DNA from: Myxococcota bacterium
GTDB taxonomy: Bacteria; Myxococcota_A; UBA796; CAJQPC01
Assembly (NCBI GenBank): GCA_036012755.1
Contig: DASCPX010000070.1
Span: 96,001-160,000, forward strand
Length of the DNA: 64,000 nt
Reading direction: 5' to 3'
The translations under genes were made by a program, and so were the position numbers. Shown in pieces: positions 1,293-22,650 of this stretch (the first letter of the stretch is position 1; every line of letters begins with the position of its first letter). The notes beneath the pieces are model-generated. The model saw only the letters and a list, made by a program, of their open reading frames with translations, was not told the DNA's origin and ran no database searches.

Positions 1293-2199
1293 GCAGGGCG
1301 ACGACCTTGCCGAGCACCCCGCCCTCGAGGGCCGTGTGGGCCTCGGACAGGTCCTCGAAGACCCCTCCGACGTGAGCCCTCAACCGTCCCGCCCGGACCT
1401 CCTCCCACATGGCCTGGAGGTCCTCGCGGGTCCCCATCGTCGAGCCGATGAGCTCCTGCTGCTTGAAGAAGAGCACGCGCAGATCGATCTCCACCGTCGC
1501 GCCGGTGGTGGCGCCGCAGGTCACGAGCCGTCCTCTCCAGTCCAGGGCGCGCAGGCTGCGTGGCCAGGTCGCGGCGCCGACGTGCTCGATCACCACGTCG
1601 CTCCTCGGGAAGCGCTCGGCGTCGGAGTCGAGGACCGTGTCGGCGCCGAGCTCGAGGCAGAGCTCGCGCTTGGCCGGGCTCCGGGCCGTCGCCACCACGT
1701 GGCACCCGGCGTTGTGAGCGATCTGGACGGCGAAGTGCCCGACGCCGCTGGTCCCCCCGATGACGAGGACTCGCTCACCCTGCTGGATCCTGGCCTTTCG
1801 CAGCATCTGCCAGGCCGTGAGCGCTGACAGGGCGATGGGCGCCGCGTCCACGGTCGAGAGCCCCTCGGGGATGGGCAGCAGGCTCTCCTCGGGCACTGAA
1901 ACGAGCTCGCGGTACCAGCCGTCGATGGACTCCCCGCGGATGTGGCCGTCGAGGGTCTGGGGGGCCAGGGCGACCCGCTGACCGGTGTCGACGACGACCC
2001 CGGCTGCGTCCGAGCCGGGTACCAGCGGCAGGGGGAAGCGATGGCCCGGGACCCCTCGGCGGACCCAGAGATCCAGGTGGTTGAGACCCACCGCCTCGAC
2101 GCGCACGAGCACTTCGCCCTCGGCCGGATCCGGGGCCTTCACCTGCTCCTCGATCAGGGCCTCGGTGCCCCCGTGTTCGTGGACGCGGATCTGACGCAT
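1282..2199 (-). CDS. Zinc-binding alcohol dehydrogenase/quinone oxidoreductase (MDR family)
   Basis: Likely start MRQIRVHEHGG at 2199 (GGAG upstream); GLNHLDLW, PGSDAAG, GGTSGVG NAD(P)-binding motif, C-terminal GKVV. Confidence 0.9.
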   Translation of the reverse strand: MRQIRVHEHGGTEALIEEQVKAPDPAEGEVLVRVEAVGLNHLDLWVRRGVPGHRFPLPLVPGSDAAGVVVDTGQRVALAPQTLDGHIRGESIDGWYRELVSVPEESLLPIPEGLSTVDAAPIALSALTAWQMLRKARIQQGERVLVIGGTSGVGHFAVQIAHNAGCHVVATARSPAKRELCLELGADTVLDSDAERFPRSDVVIEHVGAATWPRSLRALDWRGRLVTCGATTGATVEIDLRVLFFKQQELIGSTMGTREDLQAMWEEVRAGRLRAHVGGVFEDLSEAHTALEGGVLGKVVALLRR

Positions 2200-2228
2200 A
2201 GGGGGTCTCCAGGGTGTACAAACCGCGC

Positions 2229-3138
2229 GTGTTGCTCCTATCCCTCGCGCTGGCCTCGCCCCACACGGAGCAGCTCGTCGTCCCGCCTCGCGTGGGGGAG
2301 CGCGTGCCCCCCGGGCCGCCGCCCGAGGTCTGGGTCTACGGCTACTGGGCGTTCTGGGCCGGGGATCTGGAGGACATCGACTGGTCCCGGCTCCACACCC
2401 TCTATCGACTGGCGCGGCGCCTACGACTACGACGAGCTGGCTTTCGCCTCCGACGGTCTGTTCATCATGGGCTACGGCTACCACTCGTCGGGGTCCAACC
2501 CGGGGCCGCTGTCTCCTCTCCACGGCGGGGACCCCTGGTCGCGCTACAGCCTCGAGTGGACCGTCGAGGACTACATCAAGTGGGGCTGTCCTCCGGACAA
2601 GATCATCGTCGGTCTCCCGCTGTATGGCCGCGAGTGGCCCACCACGGACAACTCCGTCCCTGGCACCGCCACCGCGGACAGCAGCTCGGTGACCTTCTCG
2701 AAGGCCTGGACCTACGCCGAGAGCAACGAGACCTTCTACGACACGGTCACCGACACGCCCTACATGTTCCGCAGCTCCACCTCGCAGCTCTGGTACGACG
2801 ACACCGACAGCATCGGGGTCAAGATCGCCTGGGCGGTGGAGACGGAGCTCCTCGGCGTCGGCTTCTGGGCCCTGAACTACGATGGCGGCGATCCGGACTT
2901 CTGGCAGATGGTGTCTGACCAGACGACCTCTGATGAGCCGGTCGACACGGGCTCGCTGGATTCCGGCACCGACTCGGCCTCCGACTCGGACGCGCGCCCC
3001 GGGCGAGGCTCGTCCTGGGGGGACGAGGACACCCCGCGCGCCTGCGGCTGCGACGGCAGCGGTGGTCTCGGCGCGGCCTGGGTCCTGACACTGATCCTCG
3101 TGTCCCGGTCCAGGCGCAGGGCTCCTGACGACAGTTAG
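2229..3138 (+). pseudogene. GH18-family glycoside hydrolase with MYXO-CTERM-like tail, disrupted by an internal deletion/frameshift near 2395
   Basis: One frame gives signal peptide + VYGYWAFW..IDWSRLH; another frame gives IDWRGAYDYDELA..FIMGY..DKIIVGLPLYGREW..WYDD..GVGFWAL + CGC-TM-RRR. The DxxDxDxE catalytic region is in neither piece. Confidence 0.7.
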
Positions 3139-3199
3139 TGATTCCGACCCCTTGGCCAGATGGCACAATGCTTGCTGCAGGGCTGTGACGGAGGCCTGA

Positions 3200-3991
3200 A
3201 TGTCCGTCTTGTTGTTCCTCTCGCCTGCACACGCCGACGCCGACGCCATGGAGCCGGAGTGCAGTCTCGTCACCGTCACCGACACACTTCCCGGCCCAGA
3301 GGCCGTGGGTGTGCCCCTCGATGTGTCCCCGGCCGCTCTCTTCTGGGGTGACTGCGACGGTCCAGACCAGTGGACCCTCGAGATCACAGAGGACGGCGAG
3401 GTCGTTGCCAGCGACGTCTTCGACTTCGACTGGTCCGGGCGCCCCCAGCAGATGCGCCTCCACCTGGACGTCGAGCTCGCCCCCGACACCGACTACGAGC
3501 TCCGCGTCGTCCCCGGCGAGGGTGGCTACTCCGAGCCCGCGACCGTCGGCTTCACCACGGGCACAGAGCTCTCCGGTGGCCTCAGCGGCGACCCGCTCAT
3601 CACAGAGGCCGAGGCCTGGTTCTACGACTTCGACACCTCCGTCGAGGTCGGTGGGTCGTTCACGGTCTCCCCTGCCATCGACGCCGATGGGCTCTCACTG
3701 CTCCACTTCGTCGACGAGGACGGCGAGATCCTCCAGACCCGCGTTGTCGGTGATGGAGAGGTCGAGTTCACCGCCCAGACCACCTGGGCGACCTCTGCAC
3801 CCACAGAGGACATCTGCTACTCCGTCTTCCAGGAGGACGCCGCGGGGCTGGCCTCGGCGGTGGAGACGGTCTGCGTCGGCGCCGACGAGCGCTTCGTCGA
3901 GGAAGACAGGCGCGGCTGCTCCACCGGTGGCCTCGCCCCCACGGCGCTCTTCGGTCTCATCGGTCTCCTCGGACTGCGGAGGCGGCGATGA
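3200..3991 (+). CDS. Secreted Ig-like protein with MYXO-CTERM-like sorting tail (paralogue 1 of 4)
   Basis: Short signal peptide, acidic beta-rich body, ends GCSTGGLAPTALFGLIGLLGLRRRR; GGAGG RBS. Confidence 0.8.
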   Translation: MSVLLFLSPAHADADAMEPECSLVTVTDTLPGPEAVGVPLDVSPAALFWGDCDGPDQWTLEITEDGEVVASDVFDFDWSGRPQQMRLHLDVELAPDTDYELRVVPGEGGYSEPATVGFTTGTELSGGLSGDPLITEAEAWFYDFDTSVEVGGSFTVSPAIDADGLSLLHFVDEDGEILQTRVVGDGEVEFTAQTTWATSAPTEDICYSVFQEDAAGLASAVETVCVGADERFVEEDRRGCSTGGLAPTALFGLIGLLGLRRRR

Positions 3992-4710
3992 CGCTCGCGC
4001 TCATCGCGGTGGCCTCCGCGGACATGGAGATCCAGATCTGCGAGGGCCCCCGGGTCATCGCCAGCATCCCCCGGCACGGGGACGTCGAGGTCCCCGTCGA
4101 CCTCGCCCCCGTGCTGGTCTTCGACTACTGCGACGCCAGCCAGACCGCCACGGTCCGTCTCTACGAGGATGACCTGATGGTGCTGGAGGAGGACATCTCG
4201 GAGGACGGTCTCACGACCATCTTCGAGCTGGACTGGGAGCAGTCGGCGGGCAGCAGCTACCACGTCCGCGTGACCCCCAGCGACGGCGGCGAAGAGGTCA
4301 TCATCGACTGGCTCGTCGGTGAGGAGCTGCTCGTCGAGAGCGACATCGGTCCGACGATCAGCAGCGTCGACGAAGACAGAAGCGGCAGGATCGGCACGCT
4401 CTACGCCTACGTGGACCCGGGCCCCCAGCCGAACGAGCTGCCAGCCATCTTCGAACTCCGCGACGACGACGGCGAGGTGCTCGACCGCACCTGGCGGTGG
4501 GACGCCGGCTCCTCGGTCACCCTCTGGGGCGCCTTCTCCGGCGAGCAGCGCTTCGACGCCTGCGTGACCGCCTTCCAGCGCAGCCCCGACGGCGCCTGGC
4601 TCGAGGGGGACACCCACTGCGAGTCGAAGGTCGGCTGCTCCACCGCCGGTGGTGTCGCCTCTCTCTTCGCGGTCCTGCTCAGCCTGCTCGGACTCAGGAG
4701 GCGCAAGTGA
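3988..4710 (+). CDS. Secreted MYXO-CTERM-like protein (paralogue 2)
   Basis: ATGA overlap with the previous gene; VPVDLAP motif; ends GCSTAGG-TM-RRRK. Confidence 0.8.
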   Translation: MTLALIAVASADMEIQICEGPRVIASIPRHGDVEVPVDLAPVLVFDYCDASQTATVRLYEDDLMVLEEDISEDGLTTIFELDWEQSAGSSYHVRVTPSDGGEEVIIDWLVGEELLVESDIGPTISSVDEDRSGRIGTLYAYVDPGPQPNELPAIFELRDDDGEVLDRTWRWDAGSSVTLWGAFSGEQRFDACVTAFQRSPDGAWLEGDTHCESKVGCSTAGGVASLFAVLLSLLGLRRRK

Positions 4711-5456: not shown

Positions 5457-6196
5457 TCTGGATGAGCCTGGCGCTGGCGGACCCTGCCGCGGACACCGGG
5501 ATCGGCTGCTCCTCGGACTCGCTGTATGCCACGAGCCCGCACAACGACTCCAGCGACGTGCCCGTCGATCTGCTGCCGACCATCTTCTTCTCCGACTGTC
5601 CGGGTGTCGGCGCCAGCGGCCTCGTAGAGGTCCATGTCGACGACGAGCTGGTCCACACAGAGGTCGTCGCTCACGACGGCGAGGGCGACTATTCCTGGGT
5701 GGCCCTCGGCCTGGAGCTGGAGGCGGAGACGTCCTACGTGCTGGTCTACACCCCGGAGGATGGCGGCCAGGAGACGCAGATCGGCTGGACCACCGGGACG
5801 CGCTCGGCGAGCCTGCTGTCCCGCGCACCGGAGCACGAAGAGCCCGTCGAGTGGGGCTGGAACCGCGGCACGGAGAGCGGCAACGTGGTCGTCCACGCCG
5901 ACGCCGCCGGCAGCTCGGAGGGGCCGACCTTCATCGAGGCTCGGGACTCGGAGGGAGAGCTCTGGGGCAACGCGGCACTCGCTGGCAGCCACAACGGCAC
6001 GCTCTACGCCCGAGCCGCCGGCGAGCGTCCAGCGGACGTCTGCCTGACCTTGTGGCAGCGGGACGTCGAGGGGAGCTGGCTCGAGGGCGGCACGGACTGC
6101 CTCGACGGCAAGGCCGGCGGTTGCTCCACCGGGGGCCTCGCCGCAGGACTGCTTCCGGCTATCCTGGGGCTGATCGGGCTCCGGAGACGCAGATGA
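5453..6196 (+). CDS. Secreted MYXO-CTERM-like protein (paralogue 4)
   Basis: ATGA overlap; VPVDLLPTIFFSDC; ends GGCSTGG-TM-RRRR. Confidence 0.8.
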   Translation: MIWMSLALADPAADTGIGCSSDSLYATSPHNDSSDVPVDLLPTIFFSDCPGVGASGLVEVHVDDELVHTEVVAHDGEGDYSWVALGLELEAETSYVLVYTPEDGGQETQIGWTTGTRSASLLSRAPEHEEPVEWGWNRGTESGNVVVHADAAGSSEGPTFIEARDSEGELWGNAALAGSHNGTLYARAAGERPADVCLTLWQRDVEGSWLEGGTDCLDGKAGGCSTGGLAAGLLPAILGLIGLRRRR

Positions 6197-8130
6197 TCCT
6201 GCTCGGGCTGCTCGGCTGTCCGGAGCCCGAACCCATCGAGGGCTGGGATGACGGCCCATGCCTGGAGGCGGCCGAGGAGCTCGGCAAGCTGCCCTGCGTG
6301 CACAACGTGCCCGACCTCGATCACTGGGTGGAGATCACGGTCTCCGCGCAGGCGGTGGACCAGACCCGGGCGACCAAGTGGATGATCCCGGCCGACCAGG
6401 ACGGGATCCCGCCCCTGGTGCTGAACTCGAACGAGTACGAGCTCCACTCCGACATGCTCGCGGAGGCCTTCGCCGACCGCTACCCGGGGCTTCAGCACGC
6501 GGACTACGTGCGCATGGTGCTGGACGACCCGCCTCGGTACTACTCGGGGAACCTGGCCCACTACATCCAGCCCGGCGGCGCTCGCGTCTTCGGCTTCACC
6601 GTCTGGGACGACCCGGCGGACGACTCCACCACCATCACCCTGGACGAGGCCCAGCTGGTCTACCAGGAGCTCCTGGAGATGGTGTCGCTGCGACCGCTGT
6701 TGTTCGTGCCGTCCTCTTCGAACCAGCGGACCGCCGTCGAGGGATGGGGCGACGCCATCCCGGTGCGCTCGGTCGATGGCGTCACCTACGAGCCCTACAC
6801 CCGCGGCTGGGGCTACGGCACGCTCACCCTGGTGGACCTGGAGGACCTCGAGGATGCCGAGTACGGCTTCCAGGACATCCTCGTGCTCGACGAGGCCCCC
6901 CTCGACATAGAGCGCGTCGTCAGCGGTGTCGTCACCGGGACTCGCCAGGCGGAGCTCTCCCACCTCAACGTGCGATCCGCCGCTCGTGGCACCCCGAACT
7001 GCTACCTCGCCGGCGCCCAGGACCAGCTCCGGGCCTGGGAGGGCCAGCTCGTCCAGTTCTGCTGTGGGGCCGACGGCATCGAGATCCGCACGGCGACCCA
7101 GGACGAAGCAGAGGCGTGGTGGGAGTCCATTCGCCCCGAGCCCGTCGAGATCGTGGAGCCGGACTTCTCGGTCGAGGACCTCGTCGGGCTCCTCGACCTC
7201 CCGACCTCCTCGGCGACCGAGCGCGAAGCTGGCGTCGCCGCATACGGCAGCAAGGGCACGAACCTGGCCACGCTCTACCAGCGCATCGACGCCGAACTCC
7301 AGCTGGAGGGTCTCCTGGTTCCGATGTCTGCCTACCAGGCACACCTGGACGACAACGGCATCGGGATCGGAGGTGACCTCGAAGATCTGCGGGCAGCGAT
7401 CGAGCAGGCGCCGAAGGACCCCGAGCTCGTCCTGGATCTCTACGACGCGATCTTGGAGGTCTACGGCGACGACACGACCATGGTGCGGTTCCGGTCATCG
7501 TCGAACGCAGAGGACGCCGTCGGTTTCTCTGGCGCGGGCCTCTACGACTCGGAGAGCGTCTGCGCCGCGGACAGCTTCGACGGCGACGACCTCGGCCCAT
7601 CCCTCTGTGATCCGGATCAGGATGAGGAGAGGACCATCGAAGCTGGCCTCGGGAGTGTCTGGGCCAGCCTCTGGACCGAGCGGGCAGTCGAGGAGCGCGC
7701 CTGGTACGGCATCGACGACGACGACGTCGCCATGGCCATCCTCGTGAACACTCGCAGCGAGGATGAGCAGGCCAACATCGTCGCGTTCACGGGAATCCCC
7801 GGATACTCGAGTGATGACCGGTACATGGTCGAGTCCCAGATCGGTGAGCTCGACGTCGTCTCGAACCGCTCTGGCACCTGGCCCGAGCGAGTGCTGCTGC
7901 AGCTCGATGGGGGCGAGGTCGTGGACATCGACCGGGTGTCAGCCTCCACCGAGGTCGATGTCGTCCTGGAAGACGCCGCGCTCGAGGAGCTGGGGTCGAA
8001 CCTCTGGGACATCGAGCAGATCTTCCCGGTCGATGGCTCGGCCGAAGGCAGGGTGCTGCTCGACACGGAGTGGAAGGTGCTCGCGGATGGGCAGCTGGTC
8101 GTGAAGCAGGTGCGGCCCTTCCTGGACTGA
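6193..8130 (+). CDS. Lipoprotein with PEP-synthase/PPDK-type ATP-grasp domain and phospho-His swivel-like motif
   Basis: Start MILLGLLGC at an ATGA overlap; LSHLNVRSAARGTP (His swivel-like); YGSKG, RFRSSSNAEDAVGFSGAGLY, VWASLW, DTEWK..KQVRP (PPDK_N). Confidence 0.8.
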   Translation: MILLGLLGCPEPEPIEGWDDGPCLEAAEELGKLPCVHNVPDLDHWVEITVSAQAVDQTRATKWMIPADQDGIPPLVLNSNEYELHSDMLAEAFADRYPGLQHADYVRMVLDDPPRYYSGNLAHYIQPGGARVFGFTVWDDPADDSTTITLDEAQLVYQELLEMVSLRPLLFVPSSSNQRTAVEGWGDAIPVRSVDGVTYEPYTRGWGYGTLTLVDLEDLEDAEYGFQDILVLDEAPLDIERVVSGVVTGTRQAELSHLNVRSAARGTPNCYLAGAQDQLRAWEGQLVQFCCGADGIEIRTATQDEAEAWWESIRPEPVEIVEPDFSVEDLVGLLDLPTSSATEREAGVAAYGSKGTNLATLYQRIDAELQLEGLLVPMSAYQAHLDDNGIGIGGDLEDLRAAIEQAPKDPELVLDLYDAILEVYGDDTTMVRFRSSSNAEDAVGFSGAGLYDSESVCAADSFDGDDLGPSLCDPDQDEERTIEAGLGSVWASLWTERAVEERAWYGIDDDDVAMAILVNTRSEDEQANIVAFTGIPGYSSDDRYMVESQIGELDVVSNRSGTWPERVLLQLDGGEVVDIDRVSASTEVDVVLEDAALEELGSNLWDIEQIFPVDGSAEGRVLLDTEWKVLADGQLVVKQVRPFLD

Positions 8131-8239: not shown

Positions 8240-8614
8240 ATGCGCCTTGCCGCCGCCCTCTTCCTCGTCCCGCTCGTTGCTTGCGGGACCGCCGAGACCC
8301 CTCCCGAGCCGCCTGCGCCGACAGTTGAGCCAGCCCCGCCAGCGGAGGAGGCCCAGCCTGCGGAGGCAGCCGAGCCCGCCGAAGCAGAAGCGGCGGCAAG
8401 CTACTCCTGCGCGATGCACCCCGAGGTGACCTCTGCCGAGGCAGGGGCGTGCTCGGAGTGCGGAATGGACCTCGTCGCGGTCGAGCCCGCCGAAGAGGCT
8501 GAGGGAGAGGCTGAGGGAGAGGCCGAGCCCGCCGAGGAGGCTGCCGAGGAGGCTGCCGAGGAGGCTGCCGAGGAGGCTGCCGAGGAGCCCGCAGCAGAGC
8601 CCGAAGGGACCTGA
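8240..8614 (+). CDS. Lipoprotein with a single heavy-metal-binding domain (HMBD) in acidic linkers
   Basis: Lipobox LVAC; YSCAMHPEV..GACSECGMDLV resembles YxCPMHP..GxCPxCGM; AEEA repeats. Confidence 0.8.
   Translation: MRLAAALFLVPLVACGTAETPPEPPAPTVEPAPPAEEAQPAEAAEPAEAEAAASYSCAMHPEVTSAEAGACSECGMDLVAVEPAEEAEGEAEGEAEPAEEAAEEAAEEAAEEAAEEPAAEPEGT
8531..8590 (+). repeat. Tandem 12-bp coding repeat GCCGAGGAGGCT (AEEA)n
   Basis: About five consecutive copies visible inside the HMBD lipoprotein gene. Confidence 0.85.
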
Positions 8615-8681
8615 GAGCTGTAGTCCGCGCCTTCGCCGGCACCCGAGCAGATCGGGTGCGCGGCGGAGCTGACTCTGCTGG

Positions 8682-9017
8682 TCAGCCCGTCACGGACAGG
8701 GCCATGAGCCGCACCTGGGCCATGCGGGCCTCCTGGACCCAAGCCGGTGTGAGCGCCCGTCCTTCCCAGCGCTCGAGCACCTGGGCGAGGCGTGTGATGA
8801 CCCCGATGCGAAGCTCCTGCACGGGACCACGCTCCAAGACGGGACTGCCCACCTGCCAGAGCTTGTAGCGCCCCGGGTCCTCTGTCGGGCGGGGGTCGAT
8901 GAGCCAGCGCGTACCCTCGTCGGGGAGGATCTCGATGATGCGACCATCGGCGATGGAGTGGCCGACATGCCCAAGGTCCTTGGCAGCCACCGCGTCCAGG
9001 GCGGTGCTCAGACTCAC
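8682..9017 (-). CDS. Hypothetical protein, third gene of the DUF4157 toxin operon
   Basis: GTG start at 9017 overlaps the TGA of the upstream gene; about 111 aa. Confidence 0.55.
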   Translation of the reverse strand: MSLSTALDAVAAKDLGHVGHSIADGRIIEILPDEGTRWLIDPRPTEDPGRYKLWQVGSPVLERGPVQELRIGVITRLAQVLERWEGRALTPAWVQEARMAQVRLMALSVTG

Positions 9018-9739
9018 GCCACGACCTCGTGGGCGATCGTGAGCATGCCACTGAGATCGTTCACGTTGGTGGCGTCGCGCTGGCCGATGGCGGCGCGCAC
9101 GCTGCCCTCGAGAGCCTCGCTCTCGGCGCCCTCCGCGAAGTCCAGCACCCACTTGCCACCGGCGACGTAGACATAGCCGAGCACTCCCGAGCTGCCCGAG
9201 AAGCGCAGGTGGGGCCTGGGCCGCTCGGACACAAGCTGGCTCTCTTGGACCTCCAGCTGCAGGGGTGTGAGCAGGCTGCCGGGCAGCGGCTCCTGGATCT
9301 CGTATCGAACGCGACTGAGCTGCTGGAGGACGCGGTATGCGCGCAGCGGCGGTCGCTGTTTGTCGAAGGGCTGCACCCTCTGGTCCAGGAACTGCTCTGC
9401 CTCGTGCAGGCAGAGCTTGCGCCCTCTCTCCGGCAGGGACGCCAGCACCGCCATCGCCTTCTTCTCTGCGTCGGCTGCGCTCATGGCCCGGCGCACGGGC
9501 ACCGGTCCGAGGTCCCAGGCTCGACCCGCCTTGCGGTAGTGGTCCTGGAGCGCCACGAGAGCCCGCATCCGGACCTCGCTGATGTGCATCGCGTCGCCAT
9601 GCTTGAACAAGAAGGGTGCGTCATCGTTCAGCATCCCGACCATGGCGTCCCGGTCTTTTTTGAGCCGTCGGATGCCCTCGAGGCGCCAGTCCACGGCGTC
9701 GGCCTCGAGGAGCTTGTAGTCGTCTGGCATGTCACTCAT
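9014..9739 (-). CDS. Hypothetical cytoplasmic protein (candidate immunity protein)
   Basis: 241 aa, overlaps the toxin stop codon, no signal peptide; role inferred from position only. Confidence 0.6.
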   Translation of the reverse strand: MSDMPDDYKLLEADAVDWRLEGIRRLKKDRDAMVGMLNDDAPFLFKHGDAMHISEVRMRALVALQDHYRKAGRAWDLGPVPVRRAMSAADAEKKAMAVLASLPERGRKLCLHEAEQFLDQRVQPFDKQRPPLRAYRVLQQLSRVRYEIQEPLPGSLLTPLQLEVQESQLVSERPRPHLRFSGSSGVLGYVYVAGGKWVLDFAEGAESEALEGSVRAAIGQRDATNVNDLSGMLTIAHEVVA

Positions 9740-12700
9740 TCATGTGCTCCAGCGCGTCCATCGCGCTCACGTCGCGACCCTCGAGCGCGGCGGACTCGTA
9801 GGCTCGCTCGGAGGCCTGGAAGCTGCGCTCGAGCTCGGTGAGGCCGTCACGGGTCGCCGAGCGCGTGCTCTGGGACAGCGTCGGGGTGCTCCCGGAGGTG
9901 GCCTCCAGCGGGATGAGCTCGAAGTTGTCGTGCCCGAGGATCTCCTTGAGCCGGGCGTGGAGGTCCTGCATGTTCTCCATCGGAGCGTAGGCCCGGACGA
10001 GCCGCTGGCGCAGATCGATCGGGTCGTAGACGCTGCCTTCGCCACCCAGCATGCCGTCGGAGCTGACGCCCGGACGGCCCCGGTGATTCAGGCCCTGGCC
10101 GTCGAACTCGAACAACACCGGGTAGTTGTCGAGCTGTCCCGGGCCGCCGAGGCGCCGCGGGCTACCCTCTGGCAGCGCCAGCCTGATGTCCATCTCCGAG
10201 CGCAGCTTGCCGAGCTGGGACTGGAACTGGTCGATGTCGCGGCCGAACATCTGGCCCATGGGCCCGCCCATCTCGTTGTTGGGGATGCTGCCCCAGTTGT
10301 CCACGATGTTCTGGAGCCGGCGAATCTCGTCGTCGAGCTCGTCGAAGGTGTAGAGCTTGACGTTGTAGTGGGTGCTCGAACCGCCAGCGTCGGCGTATGC
10401 GAGCGCGGTCCCGAAGCCGGACTCGCCGCTGCCGACCGAGACGAAGTCCTTGCGGCCGGCCCGGCCGCTGAAAGCATCACCTTCTCCCGTTGCCTGTGTG
10501 ACGTTGCTCTGGTGAAGGTCCTCTGCCGAGAGGATTCGCCCTTGCGTCTCGTCGAGTCCGTCCAGCATGTCGCTGTTGGAACCGTGGTACATGGTCTGGT
10601 CGAAGTCGCCTTGGCTGGCCAGCTGTGCGACCCGCCGGGTGTAGTCGTCCATCGACTGGGGAATGAAGCCGTGGGCGTCGGTCAACGCCGCGCGAATCCG
10701 TGCGAGATCGTCTGCACCGACCTTTGCACCCAGATCGTCGAAGATCCGTGCGGCATCGTCCATCCTGTTCGCCCCTAGCGCGGCGTCGGCGCTACCGATG
10801 GCCTGGACGACGTCCATCGACATCTCCTCCAGGTCGGCCCGGACGAGTCCGTGGCGTGCCAGGTCATCCATCAGGCCCGGAATACGCCTGGCCTCGACGA
10901 ACGCGGACAGTGCCTCTGCGGGTCCACCGACGATGCCGCCGGTGGCCGCGCCGATGCCACCGCCACGAAGGACGGCGACGCCGAAGCTGCAGACGACTTC
11001 CCACACAGACTGTCGCCAGATCTGGGCGTCGGCAGCAGTCATCACGATCTCTCCGACCACACCGCTGAGGAAGCCCTCGATCGTCCCGCGCAGAGCGCCG
11101 CCTGCGAAGTTCCGGCCGGCGTAGCGCGCGGCCGCGCCGGTGGTCTCCAGCGCACCGGCGGCCATCTGGCCTGCGAGTCCGGTCCGGCTGAGTCCGACGA
11201 AGTTCGAGAAGCGCGCAGCCAGCCCGGCGCTCAGGACGGCGGTCGCACCGTCAGCGAAGCCGGTGGCTGCGTCGACGGCGCCTTCGGAGCTGATCGCGTC
11301 GTAGTGGTCTCCGGCCATGAGCTCGGAGGTGGCGACCTTCGCGGCGGCACCGGCGACGCCACCGGCGAGGGCTGCTGCGCCCCACTGGGACAGGAGGGAG
11401 CCGACTGCTGGCCCTGCGCCGCCGCCTGTGAGCACAGTGACCAGGATGCCGACCGCGATGGCGGCGACCATGCCCGCGATGTTGCGGATCATGTCGACTG
11501 TCTGGACGTGCTCCCGGTAGCGCTTGGCGAAGTTGGCATCCAGGGCTGCCAGCACTGCCAGCTCGTCGGCGGTGATCGCGCCGTCCTCCATCGCCTGGTT
11601 GTAGGCGGCGTCGAGCTGGACGGAGGCCTGGTCGCGGGTCTCGTCGGCGTCCGTGAGGCCGTCGGCCAGGGTGAAGGTCAGGAGTCCGGAGCCCAGGGCC
11701 ATCTTGTCCTGCATGCGGTGGTGGAGGATGCCCGCGGCCATCAGCCGCCCCTCCTCGGTCTTGAGCTCCTCGCGGGAGGGCAGTCCGATGAGCTGGTCCA
11801 TGGCCTGCTGCAGGTCGTCGTCCCCGAGCTCGGAGTCCATGCGCGCAAACAGCGCCTGGAACTCGCGCAGGCAGCGCTGCTGCTCCGGATCGGCTGGGGA
11901 GACCCCCTCTGACTGGAGCCAGTAGCCCATGCGATAGGTGGCTCTCTCCTCCGGGCTCAAGAGCGCGAAGGTCTGGGCGATCATCTCGTCTTCTGTGCCG
12001 TCCCAGCTCCCGCCGAAGGCCCAGTCCAGGGCGCGGTCGGTGGGGATGCGGCCGGTCTCGGCGCAGGTCCGGAGCATGTCGCGCTCCTCGGACGTCAGCC
12101 ACCCGCTGCCCATCAGCGTGCGCCAGATGGCTGGCCGCTCGCGGGTCATGCGGCCCCGGTCGTCAGATGACATGTTGCCGACGATGCGGAAGAGGCCCTC
12201 CTCGTCGGTGTCCATGCCGTAGTAGGCGTCCGAGAGGCGCTGCAGGTTGATGTCGTACTGCGTGCCCTGGGCGAAGGTCTCGGCCTCTGACTGCTCCGAA
12301 GTGTTGAGGTGGGTCAGGGCCTGCTGGACCTCCGCGTCGTTCCACAGCTGGTCGCGCAGGGTCTGGTCGCCGGCGCTGAGCCGATCGAAGGCATCGTTGA
12401 TCGAGGCCTCGTCGTCGTTCCAGAAGCCGATCGCGTCGAGGATCTGCTGCTTCGCGAGCTCGAACTGGGAGACGCCGATCTGCGAGCTGAAGGCCTGGAA
12501 CTCGTCCCCGCTGACGTCGCCGTGGAGGTCGCCGAGGAAGCCGCCCGAGACGTCGCCGTCCTCGTCACGCTCGACGGTCAGGAGGTTCGACTGGATGCCG
12601 CCGAGCTCTGAGAGGCGCTGCTCCAGCGCTGCGCGGTCCTCCTCCGACAGAGGCTGGCCGTTGGGGCCGACGTTGGTTCGCAGCAGGGCCTGGATCGTGC

Positions 12701-13958
12701 GCTCCTCGTTCGCCGAGCGCTGGGCGTGCTCGATGGTCTCGGCGACCTCTTCGTCTTCCGTTCCCCAGCCCTCCGTGGCGAGCTTCATGCGCTCTTCGAG
12801 GGCATCTGCCTCCGAGCCGAGGCACATGCGGCGAACGCTGGAGCGCTCGCTGTGGTTCATGAAGTCGAACAGGCCCGGGTTCTCGTTCCAGATGCGCCGG
12901 CGATCGCCGACGTTGAGATCGAGCAGCACGCTGTAGACGGCCTGCTCGTCGTCGTTGAACCAGTTGTTCGCGTTCTGGATGCGCTCGAGCACGACCGGGT
13001 AGAGGTTGTCCGGCTGCATGATCTTCCGAGCCTGGTAGTACTCGGTATCGTTCAGGTATTCCTGGAGGAGGCGACGCACTCGGCTGCTGTTGGCGGCCGC
13101 TGCCAGCTGGGAGCTGCTGGCGCTCCGGAGCACGTCGAGCATGCCCTCTTCGTCGCCGCTGTCCCACAGCCAGCCGGGGTCGACGTTGCTGCGCAGCCGG
13201 TCGTAGATCGACAGCTGCCGCCACAGGATCGACAGGGCCTCGCGGTACTGGCTCGAGTTGCAGTACTCGCGGAAGTCGCTCTCGAGGTTGTGGCCGGTGA
13301 TCTGGCTGTACTGGGCGCGGATCTCCTGCAGCATCAGCGTGGACTGTCCGCGGATCTGACGCAGGGCTTTTTTCTCGTCCTCCGTCCAGTGATCCAGGAG
13401 GGCGTCCTTGATCTCGTAGGCCCGGCGCCGAGCCTCCTGCCAGGTGTCGGCAGGGTCCAGCTGGACCTCGGCCGAGGGAGCCTGCTGCACCTCGATGCCT
13501 CCACCGCCGGCGGCGTCGCCTGCCTGCCGGGACTCGTGCTCGGCGGCGTCGTTGACCGAGGACTGGGTGCCCGGGGTCCCGGGCCCGAACTCGTGCTCCT
13601 GGACGAGGTGCGTGACCTCTCGGATCACCTGGGCCTTGTCGGGGTTGGTGTCCGCAAAGACCAGGACCGTGCCGCTGGCTGCAGCGCTGGCGCCGCGCCG
13701 ATCCATCTCCGCGTCCTGGCCGAGGTAGACCTGGACGTCGGACAGATCGATGCCAAAGAGGGCTTCCAGCTCCTCTCTGAAGGGCAGCGGGCTGGGTCCT
13801 CCTAGGACCCGGTCCTTCAGGGAGGACCCACCGCCGTCTCGCAGTCGCTCGGTCGCGAAGTGGTTGCCACGTGCGGCCTGGTTGCCGGGACCTTCGCCTG
13901 CACCGGTCCCGTGCTCAGCAGACCCCGACCTCGGGGACTGCTCACGTCGCTTTGCCAC
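9732..13958 (-). CDS. DUF4157 (eCIS-core) + annexin-like repeats + hydrophobic region + C-terminal ART-like domain; putative polymorphic toxin
   Basis: PLPFREELEALFGIDLSDVQVY..ASAAASG..REVTHLVQ (DUF4157-like); repeated GxxTDE/DDE annexin-like motifs; Gly/Ala-rich TM block; YHGS..VSVG..ALAYA..YPVLFE..GE..V tail; GGAG RBS before the GTG. Confidence 0.75.
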   Translation of the reverse strand: MAKRREQSPRSGSAEHGTGAGEGPGNQAARGNHFATERLRDGGGSSLKDRVLGGPSPLPFREELEALFGIDLSDVQVYLGQDAEMDRRGASAAASGTVLVFADTNPDKAQVIREVTHLVQEHEFGPGTPGTQSSVNDAAEHESRQAGDAAGGGGIEVQQAPSAEVQLDPADTWQEARRRAYEIKDALLDHWTEDEKKALRQIRGQSTLMLQEIRAQYSQITGHNLESDFREYCNSSQYREALSILWRQLSIYDRLRSNVDPGWLWDSGDEEGMLDVLRSASSSQLAAAANSSRVRRLLQEYLNDTEYYQARKIMQPDNLYPVVLERIQNANNWFNDDEQAVYSVLLDLNVGDRRRIWNENPGLFDFMNHSERSSVRRMCLGSEADALEERMKLATEGWGTEDEEVAETIEHAQRSANEERTIQALLRTNVGPNGQPLSEEDRAALEQRLSELGGIQSNLLTVERDEDGDVSGGFLGDLHGDVSGDEFQAFSSQIGVSQFELAKQQILDAIGFWNDDEASINDAFDRLSAGDQTLRDQLWNDAEVQQALTHLNTSEQSEAETFAQGTQYDINLQRLSDAYYGMDTDEEGLFRIVGNMSSDDRGRMTRERPAIWRTLMGSGWLTSEERDMLRTCAETGRIPTDRALDWAFGGSWDGTEDEMIAQTFALLSPEERATYRMGYWLQSEGVSPADPEQQRCLREFQALFARMDSELGDDDLQQAMDQLIGLPSREELKTEEGRLMAAGILHHRMQDKMALGSGLLTFTLADGLTDADETRDQASVQLDAAYNQAMEDGAITADELAVLAALDANFAKRYREHVQTVDMIRNIAGMVAAIAVGILVTVLTGGGAGPAVGSLLSQWGAAALAGGVAGAAAKVATSELMAGDHYDAISSEGAVDAATGFADGATAVLSAGLAARFSNFVGLSRTGLAGQMAAGALETTGAAARYAGRNFAGGALRGTIEGFLSGVVGEIVMTAADAQIWRQSVWEVVCSFGVAVLRGGGIGAATGGIVGGPAEALSAFVEARRIPGLMDDLARHGLVRADLEEMSMDVVQAIGSADAALGANRMDDAARIFDDLGAKVGADDLARIRAALTDAHGFIPQSMDDYTRRVAQLASQGDFDQTMYHGSNSDMLDGLDETQGRILSAEDLHQSNVTQATGEGDAFSGRAGRKDFVSVGSGESGFGTALAYADAGGSSTHYNVKLYTFDELDDEIRRLQNIVDNWGSIPNNEMGGPMGQMFGRDIDQFQSQLGKLRSEMDIRLALPEGSPRRLGGPGQLDNYPVLFEFDGQGLNHRGRPGVSSDGMLGGEGSVYDPIDLRQRLVRAYAPMENMQDLHARLKEILGHDNFELIPLEATSGSTPTLSQSTRSATRDGLTELERSFQASERAYESAALEGRDVSAMDALEHMNE

Positions 13959-14381: not shown

Positions 14382-16112
14382 GTGGTCCTCTTGTTGCTGG
14401 CTTGCGAGCCCTCGCCCTGCGGGGTCGATCTGGACGGAGACGGCTACGCATCCGCTGCGAGCTGTCCGGCTGGGGACGACTGCGACGACCTCGATCCGAA
14501 GGTGCACCCATCGGCCTCCGAGATCTGCAACGGCCTCGACGACGACTGCGACGGCTGGACCGACGATGTGGTCGTGGACTTCGACGGCGACGGCTACTAC
14601 GCCTCCGGCTGTCCAGGCGGGAACGACTGCGACGACCTCGATCCGGAGGTCCATCCGGGCGCCACAGAGGTCTGCAACGGCGTCGACGACGACTGCGACT
14701 GGCGGACCGACGACGTCGACCGGGACAAGGACGGCCACTACCCCATCGAGTGTGGCGGTGGTGACTGTGACGACATGGACCCGACGCGCTCGCCGGATGC
14801 CACGGAGGAGTGCTTCGACGGCATCGACAACGACTGCGACAACTCCACCGACGACGAGGATCACGACGGGGACGGCTACTACTCCGACGACTGCGGCGGC
14901 GACGACTGCGACGACGACGACGACGAGATCCATCCCGGCGCCATCGAGCTCTGTGATGGGATCGACGCCGACTGCGACGGCGAGGTGGGCGACGTCGACG
15001 ACGACGGGGACGGCTACGGCGCGGAGTGGTGTGGCGGGACCGACTGCGACGACGACGACGCCAGCGTGAACCCCGGCGCCATCGACGACTGCGAAAACGG
15101 CGTCGACGACAACTGCGATGGCTACGTCGACGTTCGGGACACCGACGACGACAGCGACCAGCACCTCGACTGCGGGGGGCTGGACTGCGACGACCTCGAC
15201 CCGACCGTCTCGGGCAAGTTCGACGAGGTCTGCGGGGACGGGGTCGACAACGACTGCAACGGCACCGCCGACGACGCCGACCTCGACCGCGACGGCGTGC
15301 TCGACGAGGCCTGCGGTGGCGGGGACTGCGACGATCTGGACGAGCAGGTCCACGAGGGGCTTCGCGAGGTCTGCGACGGTGTCGACCGGAACTGCGACGG
15401 CTCGACCTCTGATGATCGGGACGGGGACGGGCAGAGCTGTTCCAGCGACTGCAACGACGGCATGCCGTTGATCTACAGCGGCCGCTCCGAGACCTGTGAC
15501 GGCATGGACAACGACTGTGACGGCTCGATCGACGAGGGTGTCGGCACCTGCGCGCCCTCTCTTCCCGGGGGCATGGACTTCGCCAACGGCGCCTCGGGCT
15601 GGGACCTGGACGGCTCCACCTGGGTCGTCGCCGACGAAGCGGTCGTGGGGACCGGCACCGGCAGCGATCAGTGGCGGGTGGCGGCGTACACGACGGAGTT
15701 CCTCAGCCCGCCCTTCGTCTACGAGGTCGACGTGACCCGCATCGGCGGTACGGGCACGGGGGACATCGGCATCTACCTCTCCAGGAACGGCGGCAACGCC
15801 GACGGCTACTACCTCACCATCAACCACGACAGTACGAAGGTCGAGTACGACATCGGGCGGCTGCTCAGCGGCAGCCCCTCCTCGACAACCGGCGAGGTCC
15901 ACACCCCGGTCATCATGCCGGGCAACGACCTACCCAACCGGCTCCGCATCGAGCACGACGGCAGCGAGCTGAAGTTCTACATCTCGGACCAGAAGATCCG
16001 GGGCTTCTCGGTCTCCAGCGACCTGGAGAAGGGCTACCCGGCCCTGATCTTCGAGGACCGCTCGGACGACTCGGTGAAGGTGGCCTTCGACAACGTCTAC
16101 GTGGAGAACTGA
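14382..16112 (+). CDS. Lipoprotein with about 10 MopE-type (putative metal-binding) Asp/Cys repeats and a C-terminal lectin-like beta-sandwich
   Basis: MVLLLLAC; repeated DxDGDGY..DCDD.DP.VHPGA.E.C.G.D.DCDG; tail ending VAFDNVYV resembles DUF1080/ConA-like domains. Confidence 0.85.
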   Translation: MVLLLLACEPSPCGVDLDGDGYASAASCPAGDDCDDLDPKVHPSASEICNGLDDDCDGWTDDVVVDFDGDGYYASGCPGGNDCDDLDPEVHPGATEVCNGVDDDCDWRTDDVDRDKDGHYPIECGGGDCDDMDPTRSPDATEECFDGIDNDCDNSTDDEDHDGDGYYSDDCGGDDCDDDDDEIHPGAIELCDGIDADCDGEVGDVDDDGDGYGAEWCGGTDCDDDDASVNPGAIDDCENGVDDNCDGYVDVRDTDDDSDQHLDCGGLDCDDLDPTVSGKFDEVCGDGVDNDCNGTADDADLDRDGVLDEACGGGDCDDLDEQVHEGLREVCDGVDRNCDGSTSDDRDGDGQSCSSDCNDGMPLIYSGRSETCDGMDNDCDGSIDEGVGTCAPSLPGGMDFANGASGWDLDGSTWVVADEAVVGTGTGSDQWRVAAYTTEFLSPPFVYEVDVTRIGGTGTGDIGIYLSRNGGNADGYYLTINHDSTKVEYDIGRLLSGSPSSTTGEVHTPVIMPGNDLPNRLRIEHDGSELKFYISDQKIRGFSVSSDLEKGYPALIFEDRSDDSVKVAFDNVYVEN

Positions 16113-19978: not shown

Positions 19979-22003
19979 TCAGACCTGGAGCAGCCCGATG
20001 CGCCTCAGGTCCGGCCAGAAGGCCTCGGCAGATGCGGGGCAGGTAGCCACGGCCTCATTGACCGACAGCGGTTCGGTCCCTGGCCTGGCGGCCTCGAGGA
20101 CCTCGGTGAGCCAGTCGAGCACGTCCGCCTCAGCGCTGATCAGCGTCCTGCCCCAGCGTCCGTGAAGGGCCAGGGCGCCGTCCTCGTCGAGGGGCTCGCC
20201 GCCGATCCAGACGAGCTGACTCCCGCCCTCGGACCGGGGCACGTGGAGGGCGCGGTGGATGCGGTCGGGGGCCTCGGTCGTGCCTGGCAGGGGGTGCTCC
20301 AGATCCTCACCCTTCATCCAGCGGCCCAGCCAGCGCGGCAAGAGCGCATCGAAGCGGTCGTGGTCACCGCCGGCTGGGTCCAAGTGGTCTATATCGTTGG
20401 CAGCAAAGGCCGCCGGCTGGTCCTGGATCTCGACACCGTAGCGAGCCGGATCCTGGAAGATCGGCGCGTGTCGCGTCAGGACGAAGCGGTGCCAGAATGC
20501 CGAGTCCAGTGCGCCCTCGTTGAACAATTGCCGAACGATCTCCGCACTATCCAGCGTCTCCTGGTCGCTCTGGGACGGGAAGCCGTACATGAGGTAGGCG
20601 TGCACCATGACGCCGGCGTAGCGGAAGTTGCGAGCGGCGCGGGCCACCTGCTCTACGGTGACGCCCTTGTCCATGAGTTCGAGGATGCGCGTGTTGGCCG
20701 CCTCGAGACCTCCCGTCACGGCCACGAGCCCGCTGGCGGCTAGCAACCTGCAGAGATCGTAGGAGAATGCCGTCTCGAACCTGATGTTGCCCCACCAGGT
20801 CGCTTGCACGCCACGGCCCAGCAACTCCAGGGCGAGGGCCTTCATGCCGCGGGGCGGCGCGGCCTCGTCGACGAAGTGGAAGCCCCGCCGGCCGCTCTGG
20901 ACGATGCGCTCCTCCATCGCGTCCACGAGGCGCTCGGTGGAGGCTGCCTGGTAGCGGTTGATGTAGTCGAGCTCGACGTCGCAGAAGGTGCAGCGGCGCC
21001 AGTAGCAGCCGTGGGCGAGCGTGATCTTGCTCCAGCGCCCGTCCGCCCAGAGGCGGTGGGCCGGATTGAGCCTGTCGATAAGGTCCAGGTACCTGAGATC
21101 GTCGAGCTCTCCATACCAGCCGGCGCAGGTCATCGAGGACGAGGGCTGCTCCATCCGGAGCACTCCAGCGGCTGTCCGGGTGCGATGCCGGTCGTCCTCG
21201 CCGGTCTCGCGGTGTTTGATCAGGGCGAGCAGGGGCTCCTCGCCGTCGTCGTAGGTGAGGGCGTCGACGCAGTGCCAGAGCCGAGGCTCGTCGACCTCGC
21301 GCAGCTCGGTGTTGATGTAGCCGCCGCCCATCCAGACCTCGGCGCCGCGCGCCCGCAGTCGCCGACCGAGGCGCAGTGCCCCGTACAGGCTCCCGGGGAA
21401 GGGCACGCTCAGGCCGACGACCTCGGTGTCGATCGTGTCGGCGAGCTCATCCAGCAGCTCGTCCACCACGCTGGTCATCTCCAGGCGGCTCCACAGGTCG
21501 TCGAAGCTGGCCGGACCGACGGCGAGATGGTGCTGGTAGCGCGCGAGGCCGAAGCCATCGTCGACACAGGTCGTGACGAGGTCGGCGAGGTCTTCGAGAT
21601 AGAGCGTCGCCATGTGGCGGGCGGCGTCTTGGCCCGACATGCGCCCGAAGTGACTGAGATCGTTGTTGTCCAGCCTGGGTCCACCGGGAAGAGCGCCGGA
21701 GAGGATGCGGGGACCAAAGCTGCGGTCGAGGCCTTGGAGGAAGCGAACGAGCGGCTCGACGACCTCCAGGTGCTGCTCGCGCATGGACAGGGCGCGCCAG
21801 GCAGGCTCGGGGAGGTCCTCTGGCAGTGCCTCGAAGATCCTCGTGAGCCCCTCGCGAGAGAAGAGCCGCAGCGCGAGCTCCAGCCCGAGATCCCGCTGGA
21901 CGCAGGCGACGCCGTGGTCCCGCAGAAAGGCCGCGAGGTAGGCGGTCGAGGGATAGGGCGTGTTGAGCTGGGACAGCGGCGGCAGGACGAGGGTGAGGGT
22001 CAC
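19979..22003 (-). CDS. B12-binding-domain radical SAM enzyme
   Basis: GTG start at 22003 (GTGA overlap); PPLSQLNTPYPSTAYL; CYWRRCTFC (CxxxCxxC); FHFVDEAAPP; HAYLMYGFP. Confidence 0.9.
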   Translation of the reverse strand: MTLTLVLPPLSQLNTPYPSTAYLAAFLRDHGVACVQRDLGLELALRLFSREGLTRIFEALPEDLPEPAWRALSMREQHLEVVEPLVRFLQGLDRSFGPRILSGALPGGPRLDNNDLSHFGRMSGQDAARHMATLYLEDLADLVTTCVDDGFGLARYQHHLAVGPASFDDLWSRLEMTSVVDELLDELADTIDTEVVGLSVPFPGSLYGALRLGRRLRARGAEVWMGGGYINTELREVDEPRLWHCVDALTYDDGEEPLLALIKHRETGEDDRHRTRTAAGVLRMEQPSSSMTCAGWYGELDDLRYLDLIDRLNPAHRLWADGRWSKITLAHGCYWRRCTFCDVELDYINRYQAASTERLVDAMEERIVQSGRRGFHFVDEAAPPRGMKALALELLGRGVQATWWGNIRFETAFSYDLCRLLAASGLVAVTGGLEAANTRILELMDKGVTVEQVARAARNFRYAGVMVHAYLMYGFPSQSDQETLDSAEIVRQLFNEGALDSAFWHRFVLTRHAPIFQDPARYGVEIQDQPAAFAANDIDHLDPAGGDHDRFDALLPRWLGRWMKGEDLEHPLPGTTEAPDRIHRALHVPRSEGGSQLVWIGGEPLDEDGALALHGRWGRTLISAEADVLDWLTEVLEAARPGTEPLSVNEAVATCPASAEAFWPDLRRIGLLQV

Positions 22004-22650
22004 CGCAGGCCCTCTCGCAGGGTGCGCGCCGTCATGCCGCCCAGGTAGCGCAGGGCGCCGCGGTCGTGCATGGAGGCCCCGCCCGAGCGCGGTCGCATGT
22101 TCACGGGGACCTCTCGGATGAGCAGGTCGTTGCGCCTCGCGAGCACGAAGATGTTGGCGTCGGCGTAGTCCTCTGGGAAGCACTCGGCGAAGACCCCGAC
22201 CGCTCTGGGGCTCAGGGCCTGGAAGCCGCTGGTGACGTCCCGGATGCGCTGGCCGATCAAGGCCATCGTGAGCCAGGACAGCCCCTCGATGGCGACCCGA
22301 CGGCGCAGCGACATCCGGTAGCCCGAGGGCTCGAGGAAGCGGGAGCCGATGACCAGGTCGGCCTCTCGGAGACCCTCGCGCAACAGCGGGATGGCCTCTG
22401 CCGGGTGCTGTCCGTCTGCGTCGAGCTGCACTACCGCTGATCCCTGGAGGTGGCGATAGCCGGCCTTGAGCGCCTGGGCGTACCCGGCATCGGACTCCAT
22501 GACCTCTGCGCCGGCGGCTCGGGCCTGCTCGGCCGTGTCGTCGATGCAGCCGTTGACGACGACGAGGACGCCCTCGACGTGTGCGCTCGCAGCCCGGACG
22601 ACCTCGCCGACGCGGGGACCCTCGTTTCGCGCCGGGATGAGCGCGAACAC
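22000..22650 (-). CDS. Glycosyltransferase family 2 (DPM1-like)
   Basis: LIPARNE, QLDADGQH (DxD), VIGSRF, RDVTSGF. Confidence 0.9.
   Translation of the reverse strand: MFALIPARNEGPRVGEVVRAASAHVEGVLVVVNGCIDDTAEQARAAGAEVMESDAGYAQALKAGYRHLQGSAVVQLDADGQHPAEAIPLLREGLREADLVIGSRFLEPSGYRMSLRRRVAIEGLSWLTMALIGQRIRDVTSGFQALSPRAVGVFAECFPEDYADANIFVLARRNDLLIREVPVNMRPRSGGASMHDRGALRYLGGMTARTLREGLR

Follow-up and report, generated by a model that had tools for sequence, protein, structure and literature searches.

An exchangeable C-terminal domain with a DarT-like predicted fold on a DUF4157-annexin polymorphic toxin of a Myxococcota bacterium

A gene for a polymorphic toxin is located on the reverse strand, at positions 9732 to 13958, of the DNA analysed here (64,000 nucleotides of contig DASCPX010000070.1 in assembly GCA_036012755.1, a Myxococcota bacterium; hereafter, the window). 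In this protein, a constant N-terminal scaffold, which comprises a DUF4157 domain, annexin-like repeats, and a hydrophobic block, is joined to an interchangeable C-terminal tip, and the variation of the tip is found between genomes. According to its structural model, the tip encoded in the window (hereafter, CT) is a domain of the ADP-ribosyltransferase (ART) superfamily, and its closest fold, among the best rows of a fold search, is that of DarT1/DarT2, not that of diphtheria toxin or PARP. The new part of the protein is this warhead, which belongs to an ART-fold family of 92 clusters without a name in Pfam, NCBIfam, or PADLOC. The 241-aa protein encoded by the overlapping downstream gene probably protects the producer, judging from gene order. 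We consider it likely that the locus encodes an eCIS-type toxin (eCIS, extracellular contractile injection system) whose ART-fold warhead is active and uses NAD, together with cognate immunity; the substrate is outside this estimate.

Layout of the toxin and exchange of its C-terminus

The toxin gene and its parts are listed below (window coordinates and strand).

9732..13958, (-): whole toxin gene (P0001, 1408 aa); single stop-free open reading frame (ORF); 22 relatives
13794..13958, (-): polar low-complexity leader, aa 1-55; 75% disorder-promoting residues; candidate eCIS loading sequence by analogy with AlgoCIS cargo leaders
13590..13793, (-): DUF4157/eCIS_core domain, aa 56-123; PF13699, E 1.3e-6; degenerate zinc motif (RExxH)
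11799..13433, (-): seven annexin-like repeats, about aa 176-720; family profile against PDB annexins; insert after repeat 4
11493..11798, (-): connector from the repeats to the hydrophobic block, aa 721-822; common to the scaffold family (alignment A3, BLAST coverage)
10899..11492, (-): Gly/Ala-rich hydrophobic block, aa 823-1020; assigned by hydropathy; candidate membrane-inserting translocation region
10662..10898, (-): linker, aa 1021-1099; swap point, since alignments to relatives with other tips mostly stop near aa 1096-1100
9732..10661, (-): C-terminal ART-fold domain (CT), aa 1100-1408; based on 92 clusters, conservation, the model, and DarT with Z 10.2
CT landmarks: His1125 (10584-10586), TGEG 1157-1160, Ser1174, Tyr1188, helical insert at about aa 1200-1270, Glu1307 (10038-10040)

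The whole-protein search, in which the best 8000 candidates were scored, gave 22 relatives of like length, among them the cluster of the window protein itself. Each of the 22 was matched over the repeats and over the hydrophobic block; CT is common to nine of these scaffold relatives, and the other 13 have other tails, which form 10 sequence groups. The variation of the C-terminus among homologues, which a preliminary description of this DNA had expected, was therefore found. Other tips matched EndoU (P0017) and Ntox24 (P0023) above the Pfam cut-off, and CdiA RNase A (P0019), RelA/SpoT (P0022), and Ntox1 (P0015) below it. The source label of a close relative of the toxin (P0007, 59% identical) and of a homologue of the 241-aa protein (P0122) is Myxococcota. 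Scaffold matches (E<=1e-10) were present in 28 of the 182 genomes of the class. Sixteen scaffold regions were fetched, two with this CT and 14 with a different tip. Tips of the R-S-E ART class, whose members mostly modify proteins, were found at L057 and L058 (above the cut-off) and at L061 (below it), and two genomes of the same family carry R-S-E ARTs on a scaffold 48-50% identical. Calpain-like protease tips were seen on weakly related scaffolds (L070 and L071), and the remaining fetched tips were unnamed. Three of the unnamed tips on the same scaffold (L060:4200-5162, L065:3603-4562, and L067:3256-4215) were Pfam-negative at E<=0.1, and those of L060 and L065 are alike by eye. One scaffold locus with another warhead has Imm49 downstream. 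In the host genome (G000), no second copy of the scaffold, CT, the 241-aa gene, or the 111-aa gene (see below) was found; paralogues with other C-termini, a search for which had been suggested in the preliminary description, were thus absent from it.

The family of CT was defined with the last 309 residues of the toxin and consists of 92 clusters at 50% identity. The CT domain is a mobile module: of 73 near-full matches, 60 have it no more than 80 residues from the C-terminal end, and a DUF4157-like domain is present in 18 of the 45 CT proteins with more than 250 residues N-terminal of CT. A Pfam scan of 55 of the 92 members detected eCIS_core (17), annexin (2), Zeta toxin (4), Ntox3 (1), and OTU (1), and gave zero matches to Rhs, PAAR, and haemagglutinin. 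Multi-warhead fusions of the ART-fold domain were observed in P0068, P0071, P0074, P0076, P0027, and P0058, the partner being Zeta toxin (four proteins), Ntox3, or OTU plus Stv. The family is spread over Myxococcota, Actinobacteria, and others, with Nocardioides marinquilinus, Cystobacter fuscus, and Corallococcus sp. CA054B as named cultured carriers; CT was unmatched in the plasmid and phage collections. When 26 members were searched against Pfam, NCBIfam, and PADLOC, no family was common to more than one member.

The ORF has a GTG start, a TGA stop, 1408 codons without an internal stop, and a GC content at third codon positions of 0.88; the host genome is 6.73 Mb (68% GC, 96% complete), and the toxin contig (C70) is 337 kb. 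The elements named in the preliminary description (DUF4157, repeats, hydrophobic block, and C-terminal motifs) were all located where claimed in the ORF. For the DUF4157-like N-terminus, the Pfam scan gave 28.9 bits with PF13699 (cut-off, 22), and REVTH is at aa 113 (window 13608-13622). Among the 22 scaffold relatives (own cluster included), the zinc motif is HExxH in 11, RExxH in five, and absent in six; since RExxH occurs in five relatives, the altered motif is regarded as a lineage trait and not as an assembly error. All seven annexin-like motifs that had been described were also found, at aa 190, 266, 334, 397, 513, 581, and 653 (spacing 76/68/63/116/68/72). The Pfam Annexin model gave 18.3 and 22.1 bits with the single toxin protein, under the cut-off of 25; with a 17-sequence family profile, 37 of the 39 matches in PDB were annexins (E 3.8e-7 for annexin A5, matched at repeats 6-7). 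In the repeat-versus-repeat comparison with hhalign (motif-anchored windows, without shuffle control), 18 of 21 pairs had E<=0.01, yet the probability exceeded 80% in three of 21 only. As for the type II Ca2+ motif (GxGTD), GxGT is present in repeat 4 only, repeats 6 and 7 have near variants, and the remainder is degenerate. The hydrophobic block is Gly/Ala-rich as described (41% Gly+Ala vs 22% in the whole protein; 11% charged residues vs 25%), and it contains a single strongly hydrophobic 19-residue segment at aa 827-845 (11424-11480; Kyte-Doolittle 2.34), which is similar to a transmembrane (TM) helix, together with four others at 1.2-1.5.

The leader (aa 1-55) has no hydrophobic signal-peptide-like stretch. 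In one run (X6), which was not flagged as a possible source of the stretch although some other runs of its study were, an 18-base in-frame insertion was observed at window 13876, within the leader, and one cluster member (P0153) is 1414 aa long; the leader thus tolerates length change. One contig of X6 extends over window 8558-10880 with one difference and covers the toxin end and both downstream genes. An assembly artefact was ruled out by this separately assembled contig and by the layout common to relatives. The runs that contain most of the 64-kb stretch were marine metagenomes (runs with a small share of it were left out), and no RNA run was among the runs listed as containing the stretch.

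Predicted fold and conserved residues of the C-terminal domain

The CT model was built from a 64-row alignment (predicted local distance difference test (pLDDT), 96.6; predicted template modelling score (pTM), 0.92); the pLDDT of a single-sequence fold was 38. In the fold search against 48,161 chains, the top four were DarT1/DarT (Z 10.2, 10.2, 9.6, and 9.2; root mean square deviation, 3.2-3.6 A; 146-155 residues). For the Z of 10.2, obtained in the search and in its repeat, the deviation was 3.3-3.4 A with 150-153 residues aligned. With this tool, a Z below 8 may mean a common arrangement; the DarT rows exceed 8 and cover the core. The next folds were tRNA 2'-phosphotransferases (Tpt1; Z 7.0 and 6.9), Arr (6.1), and TreX (6.1), and the 11 best chains also include CC0527 and PltA. 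PARP16 (Z 5.0) and PARP-1 (Z 4.3) were among the 50 best rows; diphtheria toxin, cholix, exotoxin A, and OspC/CopC were not among these 50 rows, although they may be present lower down. The preliminary description had proposed a C-terminal H-type ART resembling diphtheria toxin and PARP, with a helical insert. The ART fold, the insert, and the conserved His and Glu were borne out, whereas the nearest structure is DarT and the middle residue is mostly Ser.

Sequence comparison did not name the domain. Neither the whole protein nor alignment A1 had a meaningful match in PDB, and Foldseek against PDB gave no CT match at E<=0.001. PF14487 was matched by none of 26 CT-family members at E<=1, and no PF14487 protein was found in the host genome. 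We considered CT as a member of the DarT family and rejected it, since neither a PF14487 match nor an adjacent DarG macrodomain or NADAR antitoxin was found. CT also departs from the H-Y-E enzymes at the middle triad position, where, as placed by strand order, it has Ser and not Tyr.

Among 76 full-length members, the following residues were conserved: His1125 (71), Ser1129 (70), Gly1140 (71), Glu1159 (75), Lys1170 (63), Tyr1188 (75), Glu1255 (71), Arg1259 (71), Glu1307 (74), and Glu1352 (73). Position 1174 is Ser in 56, Tyr in 11, and Phe in six, and it is Ser in the window protein. His1125, Ser1174, and Glu1307 are each on a predicted strand. The motifs YHGS, VSVG, ALAYA, YPVLFE, and GGEG are at aa 1124, 1173, 1185, 1279, and 1305, respectively. 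As for the catalytic Arg of DarT (R52 in DarT1, R51 in DarT2), the alignment shows no conserved Arg between the first and second strands of CT; Lys1170 is found in 63 of 76. In DarT1, too, Ser takes the place of the Tyr of H-Y-E enzymes, and R52, D54, M71, N104, and E152 are required (PMC11543638).

Downstream genes and eCIS genes

Two further genes overlap in series with the end of the toxin gene. Neither had been included in the preliminary description.

9014..9739, (-): 241-aa candidate cognate immunity gene (P0114); 8-bp overlap with the toxin end; linkage to CT; no family name
8682..9017, (-): 111-aa third gene; 4-bp overlap with the 241-aa gene; unnamed family; tracks the annexin-TM scaffold

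The 241-aa protein had 38 homologues (labelled Myxococcota, Oligoflexia, Roseiflexaceae, Planctomycetes, and Actinobacteria) and no usable match in Pfam, PDB, or Atlas. No macrodomain or NADAR match was found in Pfam for either downstream protein, nor in PDB for the 241-aa family. A gene of this family directly follows full CT in all eight loci with flanking DNA (the window, L005, L006, L023, L024, L025, L056, and L059; identical loci were counted once, and L011 was dropped because of a contig edge). Of 12 scaffold loci that bear other tips and have no less than 1.3 kb of sequence downstream, none has it after the toxin (L062 and L068, which lack that room, were dropped). In L025, the same CT and the 241-aa neighbour are found with a scaffold that is just 26-34% identical. 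In L006, the ART domain is followed by an added Pfam-negative domain of 108 aa, and about 120 extra residues stand at the N-terminus of the immunity homologue (L006:2852-3178 and 3175-4380). This is an apparent double toxin with double immunity, and such paired additions would be expected if toxin and immunity grow together. Modelled as a complex, CT and the 241-aa protein gave a score of 0.00, which tells neither for nor against a contact. At L113:226-2328, an orphan immunity homologue and the third gene were observed with an upstream pair instead of a toxin; by eye, we take this pair to be of the HigBA type.

The 111-aa family provides the third gene in five of the seven other CT loci and is absent from L024 and L025. 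It also directly follows the toxin in six of the 12 loci with other tips, three of which are R-S-E ART-like. The 111-aa protein is a candidate chaperone for the hydrophobic block, or a candidate second or broad immunity protein for NAD-using tips.

The preliminary description had suggested a search for eCIS and type VI secretion system (T6SS) genes; in the host genome the former are present, and T6SS VipB was not found (the genome is 96% complete). One end of contig C87 has two tubes, two sheaths, Pvc16, CIS tube-LysM, an AAA ATPase, and a DUF4157 gene, and one end of contig C119 has a GPD hub, gp25, baseplate J, and Tail_P2_I. On both contigs the eCIS genes reach the contig ends (L020:1-1194 and L021:148-7269), and C87 and C119 may be halves of one eCIS cluster. 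A weak YukD-like gene was observed at L021:8167-9075. On contig C146, a 935-aa orphan with two DUF4157 domains (L022:5727-8534) is another candidate eCIS cargo. The DUF4157 domain had been taken as the loading tag; this assignment was rejected on the result with AlgoCIS, as described in a preprint, where loading needs a disordered leader and an AAA ATPase and DUF4157 is dispensable (bioRxiv 10.64898/2026.05.27.728243). Thus, the loading tag here is more likely the leader.

Other genes in the window look unrelated to the toxin unit (1942-3138, 5851-8130, 14382-16112, 19979-22717, and 24526-25797; GH18 hydrolase, PPDK_N protein, MopE-repeat protein, radical SAM protein, and DUF2779).

Proposed action, alternatives, and known systems

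The best explanation is that the toxin is an orphan cargo of the genome's own eCIS, encoded in a three-gene unit of toxin, immunity, and accessory protein. The steps of its action are deduced from what was computed here (layout, swapping, eCIS genes, fold, conservation, and linkage). The eCIS AAA ATPase would recognise the disordered leader and thread the unfolded chain into the tube, with DUF4157 as a non-catalytic accessory. After injection, the annexin repeats would dock on the membrane and the hydrophobic block would insert, and the inserted block would pass CT over the remaining membrane (the inner membrane of a Gram-negative target). In the cytoplasm of the target, CT would then bind NAD+ via His1125, cleave it via Glu1307, and transfer the ADP-ribose, and the 241-aa protein would neutralise CT in the producer and its kin. 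The candidate cognate immunity points to bacterial targets. As the acceptor, a nucleic acid, as in DarT, is our single best guess, and a tentative one. A fuller proposal, in which the CT family would be a secreted offshoot of the DarT clade used as a DNA-modifying eCIS weapon between bacteria, with a new non-hydrolase immunity protein and an annexin/TM scaffold that takes enzymes across the inner membrane of the target, aided by its own small chaperone, is unlikely as a whole. It is improbable that CT has some other reaction or is inactive.

Several observations weigh against this explanation or parts of it. The toxin is on C70, unlinked to the eCIS genes on C87 and C119, and 88% of known eCIS toxins are reported to lie within 10 genes of the eCIS operon (PMC11297309). 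Tube genes were found in 27 of the 28 scaffold- or CT-positive genomes and also in 17 of 20 scaffold-negative ones (20 listed of 154); therefore, co-occurrence with eCIS does not discriminate. The DarT likeness is structural only: identity is 10-14%, and the top Foldseek match is DarT with an E of 0.47. When CT was compared by hhalign with 23 aligned DarT sequences, neither the local nor the global run reached significance (probability 0.7%; E 0.082, no better than the 0.11 of an unrelated control); in this comparison His1125 and Glu1307 stand opposite the His and the Glu of DarT, respectively, and the putative H-S-E triad (His1125/Ser1174/Glu1307) is drawn from this weak profile alignment together with strand positions. 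Two features of CT speak against DNA as the substrate: the core is acidic (median of -3.6 charges/100 aa, -8.8 in the window protein, and -0.5 in DarT), and no conserved Arg is found between the first and second strands, where DarT has its catalytic Arg (position by alignment, without residue-level superposition). The 241-aa gene was detected in 11 of the 182 genomes, with full CT upstream in five, a CT fragment in one, a weak relic (E 0.0015) in one, no CT in three, and a contig edge in one, and the loci in which it is linked to CT are kin and not independent events. Finally, Geller et al. read annexin domains as pointing to eukaryotic targets (PMC8213781).

The last point agrees with an alternative in which the warhead ADP-ribosylates a protein, in the manner of diphtheria toxin or PARP, possibly in eukaryotic prey or grazers whose anionic lipids are bound by the annexins. 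An acidic catalytic core would suit a basic protein target, protein-modifying ARTs also match in the fold search (Z 4-5.6), sister scaffolds carry R-S-E ARTs, and annexin is among the eukaryote-like domains of eCIS (PMC8213781). However, the Z of the PARPs (5.0 and 4.3) is far under that of DarT (10.2), a tightly coupled immunity candidate argues for bacterial targets, and other warheads of the scaffold are typical antibacterial nucleases, one with Imm49 downstream. A protein acceptor is accordingly possible, though doubtful. In the same delivery scheme, CT may act as an NAD(P)+ glycohydrolase, emptying the cofactor pool without a macromolecular acceptor. The acidic core and the apparent lack of a catalytic Arg fit a lack of polyanionic substrate, the second near-invariant Glu (Glu1159, 75 of 76) and Lys1170 (63 of 76) could serve hydrolysis, and some relatives of CT are fused to Zeta toxin, which is also a metabolite-poisoning enzyme. 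ART-fold toxins can be pure NADases; in one of these, Tne5, the canonical Glu is dispensable (PMC13285283), whereas it is near-invariant in CT. No NADase structure was among the 50 best rows of the fold search, and the conserved helical insert (Glu1255 and Arg1259) suggests a macromolecular binding surface. We regard plain NAD hydrolysis as unlikely.

Two further alternatives, both of low probability in our estimation, concern delivery and immunity. Instead of eCIS cargo, the protein may be a toxin that delivers itself or is anchored at the surface (set free by lysis or in vesicles, or held by the TM helix), with the annexin array binding membranes and the tip translocating itself. The degenerate DUF4157 motif and its absence in six of 22 relatives (some perhaps truncated), the unlinked eCIS cluster, the uninformative co-occurrence, the large size, and the complete binding-plus-translocation anatomy would be in line with this; on the other hand, a disordered leader followed by DUF4157 is the layout of proven AlgoCIS cargo, of which one is 1,228 aa, the leader is without a signal-peptide-like stretch, and intact HExxH is kept in 11 of 22 relatives. 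As for immunity, the 241-aa gene may be a CT-specific chaperone or an unrelated passenger, with the 111-aa protein as the true immunity protein, as a gene of the 111-aa family comes straight after the toxin in six loci whose C-termini differ from CT (R-S-E ART-like in three) and the 241-aa family occurs without CT in three of 11 genomes. However, L024 and L025 have CT and the 241-aa homologue without the 111-aa gene, the paired domain additions in L006 argue for the 241-aa protein, and orphan immunity genes are a frequent feature of antibacterial toxin systems.

The layout itself has been known since 2012, and the claim of a new effector architecture in the preliminary description was therefore rejected. 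In PVC-metallopeptidase toxins, Zhang et al. placed annexin always before the enzymatic tip and proposed that it helps to breach the target membrane; many PVC toxins are without coupled immunity (PMC3482391). Kodavali et al. described DUF4157-annexin-Ntox3 proteins of Haliangium with five or fewer repeats and TM regions (PMC3894181), and Geller et al. listed DUF4157 as an eCIS core domain and annexin as an eCIS-enriched domain (PMC8213781). These toxins (including the Haliangium Ntox3 and the ALF-metallopeptidase proteins) share with the window toxin the order of parts and a variable C-terminus, and some of them also TM regions. They differ in that one to five repeats were reported and not seven, and the degenerate zinc motif, an ART-fold tip outside their described families, and a coupled immunity candidate are features of the window toxin. 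In the Zhang and Kodavali accounts, as far as available, the layout is a prediction without experimental test. The AlgoCIS cargoes Cgo1 and Cgo2 are alike in having a disordered leader, DUF4157, and a variable C-terminal region, and Cgo2 is of similar size; unlike them, the toxin here is far from eCIS genes, and the available text of the preprint mentions no annexin, TM, or ART parts in Cgo1/2.

As for the warhead, DarT1/DarT2 (PF14487; PDB 8baq, 7yk3, and 7omv) are alike in the His of the first strand, the GxLxS segment 15 residues on, and the Glu of a late strand, and the Ser at the inferred middle triad position is shared with DarT1. In contrast to DarT, CT has a helical insert of about 70 residues and a long C-terminal helix, it is placed on a secreted scaffold (DarT is the cytoplasmic toxin of a toxin-antitoxin system), and its neighbour genes match neither macrodomain nor NADAR family. 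Tox-ART-PARP, HYD1, HYD2, and HYE1 are likewise His-type or ART-fold warheads on polymorphic toxins, and Tox-ART-PARP and HYD2 co-occur with PVC-metallopeptidase (PMC3482391); unlike them, 26 CT members had no Pfam match to these families at E<=1, and the Atlas feature search gave HYD1 and PARP clusters at 0.86-0.87 only, which is at the level of a lead. Tne5, another ART-fold warhead of a polymorphic toxin, was set beside CT by description and not by sequence; since it is a pure NADase, the ART fold does not fix the reaction. A DarT-related ORF28 family is mentioned for arthropod viruses (PMC9503650). PT6 of Nachmias et al. is fused to DUF4157, and its toxicity to E. coli is limited to the periplasm (bioRxiv 10.1101/2021.10.19.465003), and it is unlikely, from the available text, to belong to the CT family. 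In the literature searched (listings and openings of abstracts, apart from the papers cited here, and mostly outside subscription journals), neither this warhead nor a secreted effector resembling DarT was found described; the supplements of Zhang and Nachmias could hold a member. What the locus adds to the known DUF4157-annexin-toxin layout is an ART family and an immunity family, both unnamed, together with a small protein linked to the scaffold. It makes testable the role of bacterial annexins, the route by which eCIS cargo passes the last membrane of a target bacterium, and whether DNA modification of the DarT kind also serves offence.

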